From an uncultured Opitutales bacterium (GTDB lineage: Bacteria > Verrucomicrobiota > Verrucomicrobiia > Opitutales > UBA9783), in assembly GCA_934691225.1 (NCBI GenBank), contig CAKUSQ010000001.1:30001-62000 (forward strand): a stretch of DNA of 32,000 nt, read 5' to 3'. The notes under the pieces were generated by a model. The model made no database searches. It had not been told where the DNA came from and was given only the letters and a program-made list of their open reading frames with translations. Both the position numbers and the translations under genes were made by a program. Below are positions 13,822 to 17,338 of this stretch, one piece after another. Position 1 is the stretch's first letter, and every line of letters begins with the position of its first letter.

Positions 13822-15540
13822 ATGTCATCCTCACCGAATATTTCAAATATAAGCTACATCTACCCTATTGCTAAAAATCTGAATTTGGGTGACAATCCAA
13901 CTATTGATCAAATTAAAACTGCTTATAATGAGCAATTTAAGTCACACAAAACAACTCTCGAAAATCTTTTTAATCAACTAAATAATATTTTCGGAATAAA
14001 GGATACAAAAATAACGCTACCCATTTCTATTTCTGTTTCTGATTTTATAAAAAACATTTGCGATGACTGTGATGAAAGTAACACCGCTTACAAATTTTAT
14101 GGTTGTAAAATCATCAATAAAATTAATCAATTATCAGATTATATAACCGAAGCAAACGCTATTATTGAACGAATCGGAAAGCTCACAGGAGATGAAAGCA
14201 CTAAAAATAATCAAGCGCATTCATTGTTTGTTCAACTTGAATGCTTAGATAATTTTTGCTCAGAAATTGCACAAGAATTTGGAAATCGATATCTTTACGA
14301 TTCCGAAGAAGATATTTGGAAATTAAAAATTGACGATTACAATAAATCAAAAAATTCACAATTAGAAACTAATAAATACGATAATTTGGATAACTTACGG
14401 TCAATCCCCGTAGAAATTTATCCTAATCCTAATAAAAAAGGTACCGTTTCCAAAACCATTGAGTGTTTCAATGAACTCAATTTATTAGATCGTTTAACAT
14501 ACATAAAATTATACTACGATATCACTCAAGGTAAAACCGATTATGTGTTTCCAAATGACAAAAATTTAGGCTTCCCTTGTGTTAAAGAAGATGAATCATC
14601 AGAAACACGAATAGGTAATTTAGAAAAGTTTTTCTTAGGTTATCTTATCGACCGCGATGGCCCTATCAACGCATTTGTTAACTTTTTTGAAATCAAAACA
14701 TCCGCTTTACGTTCAACAATAGCATTGATGTCAGAAAAGATAAAAGCACTCAACGTATACCTAGCTTTTATCAATCGAGCACTCAACTTACTTAACGAAA
14801 GCCAAAGCTCAAAAAATGAGAAAATTCCTGATGGAACTGTCATTGCCATGACATATCTGTGCGATAACACCGCTTACAATTTATTCGAAGATAAAACCAA
14901 TAATCAAAAATATCTCGTCATTCCTTATGAAGGTAAATACCTTTTGGTAAGGGCAGATGAAAGTGGAATGCGATTTTTACTGGGAGACGGAAAAGAAAAC
15001 GATTATAATAATTCCAACGGCTCATGCTACTTACATAGTTATGCTAATGAAACCTACAAGATTTTCATACTATATGCAGAGAAAAAAGCTGATGGAACGA
15101 CAGAAACTAAAGAAATATCTCCCATATTAAATGTTGAAAAAAATAACGAAAGTAAAGAAAACGTTAAACCAACAGCGTATTATGCCAATGAAAAAGCTAA
15201 TTACGCAGACGATCATACCAAATACCATTATGATCCTCAGCAAGACGAAATTCACGACTTTAAATTACCTCGACCTATACCTGAAGTTCAAGCCATTGCC
15301 CACAAAAGTATTCTGAACTATCAGTACGCAAGATCAAAGGAAGCTGATAACAAAGTTGTCACCTCATGGCAAGACGCTTTACAAAAGAAAACTTCCTACA
15401 TCGACACCGCTATTGAAAGCATCAATACAGATATTGAAGTTTTTAGAAATAAGATAGATACCTTTGATTCTATGTGCTCTCAACTGAACTCTCGTGTACA
15501 AGACGTCTACCTAAATACAATTAAAAATACAAACCAGTAA
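13822..15540 (+). CDS. Hypothetical 572-aa protein, paralog A of a tandem pair (no recognisable family; possible non-Sec secreted protein)
   Basis: Long uninterrupted ORF, Asn/Lys/Ile-rich, no Sec signal, no TM segment. Collinear homology to the next gene along the whole length: SNISYIYPI/SNVNYLYPV, NQAHSLF/NQAHALI, FNELNLLDRLTYIKLYYD/FNSLTLLDKLKFIRYYYK, core GYLIDRDGPINA...TSALRS.IALMSEKI, and the C-terminal helix. Confidence 0.8.
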   Translation: MSSSPNISNISYIYPIAKNLNLGDNPTIDQIKTAYNEQFKSHKTTLENLFNQLNNIFGIKDTKITLPISISVSDFIKNICDDCDESNTAYKFYGCKIINKINQLSDYITEANAIIERIGKLTGDESTKNNQAHSLFVQLECLDNFCSEIAQEFGNRYLYDSEEDIWKLKIDDYNKSKNSQLETNKYDNLDNLRSIPVEIYPNPNKKGTVSKTIECFNELNLLDRLTYIKLYYDITQGKTDYVFPNDKNLGFPCVKEDESSETRIGNLEKFFLGYLIDRDGPINAFVNFFEIKTSALRSTIALMSEKIKALNVYLAFINRALNLLNESQSSKNEKIPDGTVIAMTYLCDNTAYNLFEDKTNNQKYLVIPYEGKYLLVRADESGMRFLLGDGKENDYNNSNGSCYLHSYANETYKIFILYAEKKADGTTETKEISPILNVEKNNESKENVKPTAYYANEKANYADDHTKYHYDPQQDEIHDFKLPRPIPEVQAIAHKSILNYQYARSKEADNKVVTSWQDALQKKTSYIDTAIESINTDIEVFRNKIDTFDSMCSQLNSRVQDVYLNTIKNTNQ

Positions 15541-15544
15541 AATC

Positions 15545-17338
15545 ATGTCTTTAACTACCGATTCCATTTCTAATGTTAACTACTTATATCCTGTTCCAAC
15601 TTTGGCAACAGCAGAATCTATAAATGCAAACACACTAAAAGGTATTGCAGACAAGTATAAAGATCAATTTGAAGCACATGAAAAGATACAAAATCAAATT
15701 TTTAATAACTTTCGAAGCATTTTAGACTTACAAGAAAATGACTACAAAACAATCGATTCTTTAGGTACAAGCGAATTTTACAGAGATACAAAAACAATCA
15801 ATGGCAAAAAAATTGATAAAAATTGCTGTGTTGAAGGATATCTCAGTTATCGATTTTATATAAAAGAAATTGTAACAAAGTTACAAAATATAGAAAAATA
15901 CCTAAATGAAGTTAAAGAAATATTTCAAAATTTAAACGATTTAAAAGGTACTGATGAACAAATCAGTAATCAAGCACATGCTTTAATCGATCGATTATCC
16001 ATATTAGATAAATTTATTTATGAAAATATACAAGATTTCCAAGAATATTTTATATACAACAATGATATAAAACAATGGGAACAAATATACACAAATATTA
16101 CTGCATCTAGTATACCCTCACAGTTATCAAATTATAACCAATATGAAACATTGGAGGCACTTAGAAAAACTCAAATTGCTTATATAGACTCTTCACTAAA
16201 CAACCCGAAGGCTGATATAAGTTCTTTCAATTCATTAACGCTTTTGGATAAGTTAAAATTCATTCGATATTACTACAAACTTATTTTAGAAAAAGATGTA
16301 AGCTTTCATATTTTCCCAAGTGATGTAGAAACAGGTTATCCCTGTTTACCCAATGTAGAAAGCAAAGAAAAAACAAAAGCTACACAAGAATTAGGATCCC
16401 TTGAATTATTTTATATAGGTTACCTCATTGACCGCGATGGCCCTATCAATGCAGTATCTAGTTTCTTTGAAGTCAAAACCTCAGCTTTACGTTCAAATAT
16501 TGCTTTAATGTCTGAGAAAATATCCGCTTTAAATGAATATCTATCGTTCATTAACTGTGCTATGGACCTACTAAATCAAAGTCAATCTAACGCCTCCAAT
16601 GATAAAAAGAACCGTATTCCTGATGGTGCATGGATCGCACTTACTTATATATGCGGACAAGATATGTACAACCTATTTGAATACAAAGATAAAAAATACC
16701 TTGTAATACCCTACCAAGGTGATTATTTGTTGGTAGAAGCAAGTAAAGCAGGTATGTTGTTTTTACTAGGAGACAAAGTAGAACATATTGAATGGCAGGA
16801 TTCTGACAAAGACATCTCAAATTCAAATGGTTGTCTCTATGTAGATCTAGAAGATAAAAGGCTTTTTTTTTACAATCAGTTCGATGTTTCGGGTTCTTCA
16901 GTAAAACCTGTCAATAAAAACACACCTGAATACTTAGCTACTACGACCACAACTACAATTGATGGCAAAGAAACGAAATGTAATATAGGTTACTATGGTG
17001 AATACAAAAAATATAATAACTGGGAACAAGCTATGGTAAAAACGGTAAAAATTTCTGACTTTAAACTGCCTACACAATTAGAAGTTCAAACCATTATTCC
17101 TGGAAGCGTTTCCAAGTATAATTCGTTTTCAGACCGTAATGCTATTACCACTGAAGTTGTTAATTCTTGGACCACAGCCTTTTCAAATAAAACACAATAC
17201 ATTAACACAGCTATTGATACCATTAACACAGATGTTACCTTAGACCGCTCTAAAATTGATACTTTTGACTCCTTGTGTTCAACTTTCAGAAATAAAGCTC
17301 ACGAAGCCTATTCAAATACTGCTTCAAATATTCGGTAA
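15545..17338 (+). CDS. Hypothetical 597-aa protein, paralog B of the tandem pair
   Basis: Starts 4 nt after the paralog A stop. Same architecture and conserved blocks as paralog A. Contains a T9 run at 16863-16871. Its stop TAA directly abuts the stop of the convergent DUF59 gene. Confidence 0.8.
   Translation: MSLTTDSISNVNYLYPVPTLATAESINANTLKGIADKYKDQFEAHEKIQNQIFNNFRSILDLQENDYKTIDSLGTSEFYRDTKTINGKKIDKNCCVEGYLSYRFYIKEIVTKLQNIEKYLNEVKEIFQNLNDLKGTDEQISNQAHALIDRLSILDKFIYENIQDFQEYFIYNNDIKQWEQIYTNITASSIPSQLSNYNQYETLEALRKTQIAYIDSSLNNPKADISSFNSLTLLDKLKFIRYYYKLILEKDVSFHIFPSDVETGYPCLPNVESKEKTKATQELGSLELFYIGYLIDRDGPINAVSSFFEVKTSALRSNIALMSEKISALNEYLSFINCAMDLLNQSQSNASNDKKNRIPDGAWIALTYICGQDMYNLFEYKDKKYLVIPYQGDYLLVEASKAGMLFLLGDKVEHIEWQDSDKDISNSNGCLYVDLEDKRLFFYNQFDVSGSSVKPVNKNTPEYLATTTTTTIDGKETKCNIGYYGEYKKYNNWEQAMVKTVKISDFKLPTQLEVQTIIPGSVSKYNSFSDRNAITTEVVNSWTTAFSNKTQYINTAIDTINTDVTLDRSKIDTFDSLCSTFRNKAHEAYSNTASNIR

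Follow-up and report, generated by a model that had tools for sequence, protein, structure and literature searches.

Uncharacterised tandem paralogs of gut Opitutales belong to a protein family linked to a type III translocator operon, without detectable homology to IpaD-type tip proteins

The subject of this study is an operon in a 32,000-nucleotide stretch of DNA from an uncultured Opitutales bacterium (GenBank assembly GCA_934691225.1, contig CAKUSQ010000001.1, positions 30,001 to 62,000 of the forward strand). We call the whole stretch the window; with 10 kb added on each side, about 52 kb of this genome was examined. The operon comprises three tightly packed genes on the forward strand. 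Its first gene is a small open reading frame (ORF; 13436..13819) encoding a hydrophilic, conserved protein of 127 amino acids, whose stop codon lies 2 nt before the start of the second gene, paralog A (13822..15540, 572 amino acids); paralog B follows (15545..17338, 597 amino acids). A and B are paralogs along their full length (37% identity, E 8e-109), and the closest relatives of either are only 78-87% identical; the GTDB representatives scanned do not include the species. A first-pass annotation of the window had aligned the C-termini of A and B, and had likened both proteins to the type III secretion tip proteins IpaD, SipD and BipD, as tandem tip-like proteins in an organism of the Planctomycetes-Verrucomicrobia-Chlamydiae (PVC) type. 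The aligned segments lie where it placed them (nt 15355-15480, which are residues 512-553 of A and fall inside its C-terminal helix, and nt 17156-17281, both on the forward strand), although we count 26 identities in 42 positions instead of 27. The organism is also of PVC type (Verrucomicrobiota, Opitutales/Puniceicoccales).

A and B belong to a previously uncharacterised family without homology to any known family. Neither protein matched anything in Pfam or NCBIfam, with no PF06511 (IpaD family) or LcrV-family match at E<=1, and a Pfam search with 77 family members likewise gave no PF06511 or LcrV-family match at E<=0.01. When 1.84 billion (1.84e9) representative proteins were searched with a hidden Markov model (HMM) of the family, only 100 clusters were recovered, all of them family members or fragments, with no bridging or outgroup family among them. 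Homologues come only from uncultured gut Opitutales/Puniceicoccales, sampled from yak rumen, roe-deer rumen, termite guts and the human gut (including Hadza samples); a single 2.5-kb contig with a family gene carries an Eubacteriales label. Family proteins range from about 550 to 1765 amino acids, with multiple paralogs per genome.

We classified the ORFs of 44 fetched loci, which resolved three subfamilies (T1a, T1b and T2) in two conserved operon types. The T1 operon has the window's layout, a small ORF followed by a T1a member (A in the window) and usually a T1b member (B in the window), with a single member in termite lineages. Homologues of the small ORF stand before the first family member in all T1 operons fetched. 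The T2 operon consists of a divergent family member (650-800 amino acids), a tetratricopeptide repeat (TPR) protein of ~185 amino acids and a membrane protein of ~400 amino acids. Both operon types are present in several genomes: five metagenome-assembled genomes have one of each (locus pairs L008/L029, L009/L034, L010/L033, L016/L028 and L021/L027), and several more carry the two on one contig, where they are adjacent and divergent in L019 and L020. A scan of Joint Genome Institute metagenomes added 9 further loci with the same two operon types and an otherwise unchanged context.

It is the T2 operon that ties the family genomically to type III secretion. In the 17 T2-type loci fetched (15 of them distinct), the family member lies directly upstream of a gene for an LcrH/SycD-class chaperone, with gaps of a few nt. 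The top model for this TPR protein is TIGR02552 (LcrH_SycD), matched over the full length at 5.5e-30 with 103.9 bits against a cutoff of 104.8; it also matches PF07720, the real LcrH (down to 1e-15) and IpgC (down to 1.6e-19). The next gene, in the 14 loci where the contig continues, encodes the translocator. This protein has 2-3 transmembrane or hydrophobic segments, matches the SseC model PF04888 above its gathering score and the real YopB down to 6.8e-8, and is named SctE by NCBI. The position taken by the T2 member is that of lcrV in lcrGVH-yopBD, a gene order we checked in the fetched pCD1 locus, and of sseB in sseA-sseB-sscA-sseC; both of these genes encode a hydrophilic translocator or tip protein. 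Taken as a family, the proteins have the features by which the SctA functional class is defined: they are hydrophilic, lack a Sec signal, and are encoded and co-regulated with SctE and a class II chaperone. An HMM of the family's C-terminal helix points the same way, as outside the family it scores best with the C-termini of the cognate SctE/SseC-like proteins (independent E-value 0.0024). The C-terminal helix of LcrV ranks 3 of 927 in that search (independent E-value 0.18), and IpaD falls outside the top 22.

The window's operon shares its type of promoter with the translocator operon. A sigma-54 (RpoN) -24/-12 element, TGGCATTCATTCTGCT, lies at 13406..13421 on the forward strand, with 30 nt from its 5' end to the ATG of the small ORF and a 14-nt gap between its 3' end and that ATG. 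The element (TGGCAY-N5-yTGCT) is found 9-35 nt (mostly 24-35) before the start codon in both operon types, at about 10 other T1 loci (from corrected starts where these were miscalled) and at 10 stand-alone T2 loci. Nearly all other T1 operons carry it, some in TGGCTT or AGGCAC variants. Against a background of 0.061 per kb for the strict pattern, the strict hits that lie <=80 nt before an ORF belong, with one exception, to T1 or T2 operons. No sigma-70-like site was found in the intergenic region 13261-13435, and no sigma-28 motif upstream of T1 operons; as a positive control, flagellin genes of the same lineages carry textbook sigma-28 promoters (TAAAGTTT-N11-GCCGAT). As the shared element is of the sigma-54 and not the sigma-28 kind, the window's operon therefore belongs to the sigma-54 regulon of the translocator operon and not to the late flagellar class. 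This pattern implies a regulon under RpoN and an enhancer-binding protein.

Across our loci, the element was seen in the window and in L005, L007, L009-L011, L016, L019-L024, L026, L029, L031, L032, L034 and L038. The single exception among the strict hits belongs to a gene in L003 (13189-14398), just downstream of a termite T1 member. Its 393-amino-acid product has a signal peptide as well as a methyltransferase-like motif, and the gene may also be part of the regulon. The start codons of several homologues were apparently called too far upstream (L005 10001, which is P0072, L011 7806, L031 and L034), because the sigma-54 element falls within the annotated ORF. The true start of P0072 is probably Met48 (MLSSVSS...).

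To describe the architecture of the family, we compared AlphaFold2 models of B, built from the family alignment (predicted local distance difference test, pLDDT, 86; predicted template modelling score, pTM, 0.80), and of a distant T2 member, P0066 (pLDDT 84.6, pTM 0.78). These two independent models have the same order of elements. The N-terminal part is modelled as an ordered non-helical peptide, three long helices, a beta-hairpin and a short helix, and the C-terminal part as an invariant block opening a helix of ~50-60 residues, a variable alpha/beta region and a C-terminal helix of ~60 residues. A core helix and a C-terminal helix had been singled out in the first-pass annotation, and the models agree with it here, placing a mid-protein and a C-terminal helical region of ~60 residues each around an alpha/beta insert. 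The strings quoted for the core helix are present in A (LNVYLAFINRALNLL at residue 310 and IPDGTVI at residue 335).

The mid-protein block of B (residues 288-347, 16406..16585; all coordinates in this paragraph are on the forward strand) is the most conserved part of the protein, with LExFYxGYLxDRDGPxNA leading into a helix of ~48 residues. R297, D298, G299 and P300 of B are invariant in the family alignment. The B model has helices at 288-298 and 300-347, to which helix 311-371 (including 323-371) is equivalent in the T2 model. Between the two long helices lies a beta-rich variable insert (residues 378-501, 16676..17047) with low confidence at 445-491; the variable alpha/beta region as a whole spans residues 360-501 of the model, partly at low confidence. 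The C-terminal helix (residues 536-596, 17150..17332; 606-670 in the T2 model) measures ~60 residues, contains the 42-residue segment aligned in the first-pass annotation and is conserved to its last residue (...SNIR).

The C-terminal helix, up to its final residue, and the central block with its helix are the most conserved parts of the family, while length variation is restricted to a segment of the N-terminal half and to the alpha/beta insert. Between the N-terminal helices and the FNSL..LLD block, the former takes up inserts reaching about 1,200 residues; length varies less in the latter. Conserved helices with confined length variation are what would be expected of an assembly core with exposed domains. 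Four members, P0077 (1765 amino acids), P0078 (1306), P0034 (999) and P0024 (937), have N-terminal-half insertions of hundreds to >1000 residues upstream of the FNSL..LLD and DRDGP blocks, with the conserved helices retained; the insert of P0024 contains repeated 'D..G..I' motifs. Family members have no transmembrane or hydrophobic segment and no signal peptide. Their first 25 residues are rich in Ser and Thr (0.22 vs 0.135 in other proteins of the same loci, p 2e-23) and their N-termini are poor in Leu and acidic residues, that of A being Ser-rich. In composition, this is what type III secretion signals show.

Homology to IpaD/SipD/BipD (PF06511) or to LcrV is not supported. We aligned the family profile by hhalign with 14 real tip, translocator or flagellar proteins, among them IpaD from Shigella plasmid pCP301 and LcrV from Yersinia pCD1. 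The probability was 0.3% for IpaD and 1.4% for LcrV (E 0.037), with only the C-terminal helices aligned in the latter case. BLASTP against tip proteins gave nothing below E 0.5, the values for IpaD, SipD and BipD being E>=14. At E<=10, all that the family HMM picked up from 177,635 PDB sequences was noise (NK-lysin and NUF2), without a single tip protein. A DotF match at 0.0068 in the PDB-sequence searches (phmmer and profile) was rejected as a coiled-coil artefact. Foldseek searches of the PDB with the two models returned nothing significant (best E 0.33 for B and 0.095 for the T2 member). The profile and structure comparison with PF06511, IpaD and related proteins that had been suggested for these genes yields no significant match by hhalign or Foldseek, and the membership of A and B in the IpaD/SipD/BipD family, as originally proposed, falls with it.

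The proposal had rested in part on a residue register in the C-terminal helix, counted from a Trp. The IpaD helix used for that comparison agrees with the real pCP301 protein, and W0, F4, S5, T17, S27 and D30 are identical, with coinciding heptad hydrophobics. The resemblance itself is borderline. Against real IpaD, the register gives 6/33 identities and a BLOSUM62 score of 24, and a 33-mer that scores as high occurs in only 1.3% of 552 unrelated background proteins. A higher score (29) is reached by LcrV, and one of 20 by FlgK and IpaC. The whole 58-residue helix scores 7 against IpaD, below the best ungapped scores of unrelated proteins (15-23). At residue level, the likeness to IpaD is borderline and indistinguishable from generic similarity between Asn/Ser/Thr-rich amphipathic helices.

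Could A and B nevertheless be true, very distant homologues of IpaD/SipD/BipD or LcrV? We regard this as very improbable. Such an origin would account for the common element order (N-terminal helices, long helix, distal alpha/beta region, long C-terminal helix), for IpaD identities in the top 1.3% of the background, for the LcrV C-terminal helix being the third-best non-family HMM match and the part that hhalign pairs, and for a T2 member in the lcrV position before lcrH- and yopB-like genes. It is contradicted by the negative Pfam, PDB and Foldseek (top 50) searches, by the hhalign and BLASTP values, by the absence of IpaD from the top 22 of the C-terminal-helix search and of bridging sequences from the exhaustive HMM search, and by proteins about twice as long. 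The IpaD-type proteins themselves share with the family the element order, a Ser/Thr-rich N-terminus and the six register identities, but their gene order differs: the tip gene follows the translocators in ipaBCD and sipBCD (ipgC-ipaB-ipaC-ipaD), whereas T2 precedes them. The translocator-operon context typical of IpaD is present for T2, whereas the window's T1 operon stands alone and shares the sigma-54 promoter.

That the family works like a tip protein or hydrophilic translocator is plausible; that it is an IpaD-type family is not. The first-pass annotation reached the right neighbourhood (type III secretion, a distal component, a PVC bacterium) by a route, homology to IpaD, that fails. What stands of its tip-like type III component is the adjacency of T2 with chaperone and translocator and the common sigma-54 promoter; the IpaD identity does not. 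We give about even chances to the reading that the family consists of type III-exported, hydrophilic distal components, similar to tips or adaptors. Its members would be hydrophilic substrates of a type III export apparatus, either an injectisome or a flagellar one, and would assemble at the distal end of an extracellular appendage via the conserved central and C-terminal helices, which may pair with each other. The hypervariable alpha/beta domain would be exposed there, and the assembled proteins would offer the SctE-type pore-forming translocator, encoded beside T2 in related genomes, a tip, adaptor or platform. The small upstream protein may be a cytoplasmic chaperone or partner. Its position, like that of LcrG or FlgN, makes it a putative dedicated chaperone or partner of the proteins encoded after it; it has no Pfam or NCBIfam match, and hhalign gave no match to LcrG, FlgN, FliS or FliT (LcrG reaching 1.4% probability).

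Among known systems, LcrV/PcrV of the lcrGVH-yopBD operons offers a close parallel to these putative distal components. As in T1, a small helical ORF precedes the hydrophilic protein, and as in T2, genes for an LcrH-class chaperone and a YopB/SseC-class translocator come after that of the hydrophilic protein. LcrV is likewise hydrophilic and without a signal peptide, its long mid-protein and C-terminal helices flank a globular insert, and its C-terminal helix is weakly and collinearly similar to that of the family. The differences are also considerable: there is no significant sequence, profile or fold match, the family proteins have 550-1000+ amino acids against about 325, the corresponding synteny is split across two sigma-54-dependent operons without an adjacent YopD-like minor translocator, and no injectisome genes have been seen in family loci so far. 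Two other translocon-related roles were rejected, that of minor translocator (SctB) because members have no hydrophobic segment, and that of gatekeeper (SctW) on account of the lack of YopN similarity and a different size and architecture.

Several observations weigh against a role as distal type III component. No export apparatus genes of any kind lie in the window or in the 10 kb on either side, and the T2/SctE operon of the window's own genome was found neither by homology searches, for which a T2 member and a 13-sequence SctE alignment served as queries, nor in the 10-kb flanks. No non-flagellar sct genes (SctV, C, J, R-U) were found in about 1.4 Mb of related loci, sampled as 10-20 kb around family genes, a sample from which little follows for whole genomes, and the only apparatus genes seen there are flagellar. 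Known tip proteins are about half the size of family members. No IpaD, SipD, BipD or LcrV chain is in the Foldseek top 50 of either model, and the weak neighbours that do appear include FlgK, flagellin and cap-filament proteins (about 27/50 for the T2 model, whose hits have E 0.095-6 and TM-score 0.08-0.15, and 5/50 for B), with FlgK and flagellins of the two models at E 0.1-3. Finally, mean-field direct coupling analysis of the long-helix pairing (155 sequences, effective number 96) was dominated by gap and alignment artefacts.

Some of these points favour a different machine. The proteins might be associated with the flagellum, exported by its type III apparatus to act at the end of the hook or filament as highly divergent analogues of FlgK/FlgL/FliD, or as flagellum-secreted host-interaction factors, with small ORF, A and B paralleling flgN-flgK-flgL; the mechanism would overlap with that proposed above, and the machine would differ. 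We see this as possible, on the doubtful side. In two genomes of one lineage (L028, UBA1183; L039), T2-chaperone-SctE-STAS continues a flagellar operon after a 2-nt gap and has no sigma-54 promoter of its own. The order of the fused operon is fliF-fliG-fliH-fliI-fliJ-?-?-flgD-flgE-fliL-fliM-fliN-fliO-T2-chaperone-SctE-STAS (L028 459-14073, on UBA1183 contig_11003; L039 1-14428); commonly, fliPQR-flhBA follow fliO in flagellar gene orders. This fusion is limited to the one lineage, however, and the operons stand alone elsewhere. Canonical flagellins, with the sigma-28 promoters described above, are encoded a few kb from the T1 operons in L016 and L012, one of them at 2.4 kb. So real flagella appear to have been kept by these bacteria, although the largest of their contigs measure only about 0.85-0.88 Mb. 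These flagellins are short (266 amino acids, with Flagellin_N and Flagellin_C; L016 13618-14418 and L012 8269-9069, both on the reverse strand).

In many bacteria, from several phyla, hook and hook-associated genes are under sigma-54 control, and the family's operons fit this general pattern. Like FlgK and FlgL, A and B are tandem distant paralogs after a small helical ORF, with a variable beta-rich middle, and their ...NIR end resembles ...INIR in FlgK and ...VNLR in FlgE. One of the 77 members has a weak match to FliD_C (3e-4), which together with the Foldseek neighbours and the flagellar genes in related loci would fit a flagellar role. Yet every Foldseek hit is non-significant (E>=0.095, TM-score 0.08-0.15), and hhalign gives <=0.3% against the axial proteins FlgK, FlgL, FliC, FliD and FlgE (<=0.4% when YopB/D, IpaB/C and YopN are included). 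The Flg_bb_rod, Flg_bbr_C, Flagellin_N/C and FlgK models are unmatched in the 77 members, and the canonical flagellin and FlgE of the same lineages, as a positive control, are readily recognised by models. In the family, the long conserved helix before the insert is mid-protein and not N-terminal as in the axial proteins. Its members go with an SctE-type translocator and a class II chaperone, a combination that to our knowledge marks injectisomes and is not known from flagella.

There is precedent for the export of other substrates by this route. Campylobacter CiaB and others are exported through the flagellar type III apparatus, an example from a gut bacterium of flagellar export of host-interaction proteins with translocator-like similarity. 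CiaB has no sequence relation to the family, however, and is not encoded with a class II chaperone or in flagellar operons. One may go further and suppose that reduced-genome gut Opitutales without an injectisome export the SctE translocator, its chaperone and the family via the flagellar apparatus, to form a platform for the translocator at the distal end of the hook or filament; the fused fliF...fliO-T2-chaperone-SctE operon would be a reflection of it. We attach rather little probability to this scenario. If true, it would amount to an injection device linked to the flagellum, which might have been invented independently or be a living analogue of the transition from flagellum to injectisome.

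The variability of the family invites yet another explanation, in which its members are no structural parts of the apparatus but secreted effectors or toxin components (host-binding adhesins, say, or soluble partners of the pore-former), or else non-secreted cytoplasmic regulators or scaffolds of the sigma-54 regulon. Large lineage-specific insertions (up to 1765 amino acids in total length), hypervariable regions, several paralogs per genome and the lack of structural homology to apparatus components would suit effectors, and there are chance-level weak matches to models of alpha-pore-forming toxins. But effectors rarely preserve a core and a C-terminus, down to the final residue, throughout an order-level clade, and they are seldom coupled invariably in an operon to a translocator and chaperone or provided with a dedicated small partner gene. 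Hypervariable inserts are unexpected in a cytoplasmic regulator. We consider this explanation unlikely.

Most knowledge of type III secretion in the PVC group stems from Chlamydiae, and there the identity of the needle-tip protein is still debated. Here, uncultured gut Verrucomicrobiota forming an order-level clade, whose contigs seen reach about 0.85-0.88 Mb at 31-39% GC, prove to encode a bona fide SctE-class translocator and class II chaperone. Invariable partners of these two are the large, hydrophilic and helical proteins of an orphan family, under a sigma-54 promoter of their own (the lineage with the fliF...fliO fusion apart). If the family is indeed a distal component, it would represent a new structural solution for a tip or platform, and these abundant, unstudied gut bacteria would be likely to inject proteins into eukaryotic cells, be they gut protists or the host. 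It would also provide a concrete test case for combining translocons with flagellar export.

The surroundings of the operon hold further genes. Divergent from it lies a class-3 lipase gene (PF01764; 11596-13260, reverse strand) encoding 554 amino acids with an N-terminal signal peptide. The divergent arrangement is kept in L019, L020, L021 and L022, and in L020 the lipase gene lies between the T2 and T1 operons. At 23342-25226 of the window, downstream of the operon, and at 18987-20153 of L041 lie components like those of type II secretion or type IV pili: a T2SSF/PilC-family gene comes after one for a pilin-like protein that bears an N-terminal methylation motif, with a second T2SSF gene ~10 kb beyond. 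An ABC transporter followed by ABC_transp_aux (GldG-like) and DUF4340 genes (25318-30155) resembles the gliding-associated GldA/F/G cassettes, and an 821-amino-acid protein without a Pfam match is encoded after them, just beyond the window. The GC content of the window is 31-39%, its GC skew is persistently negative, and its sequence is present on contigs of 410,860 and 847,666 bp, all of which would fit a small genome that possibly depends on a host or a protist.

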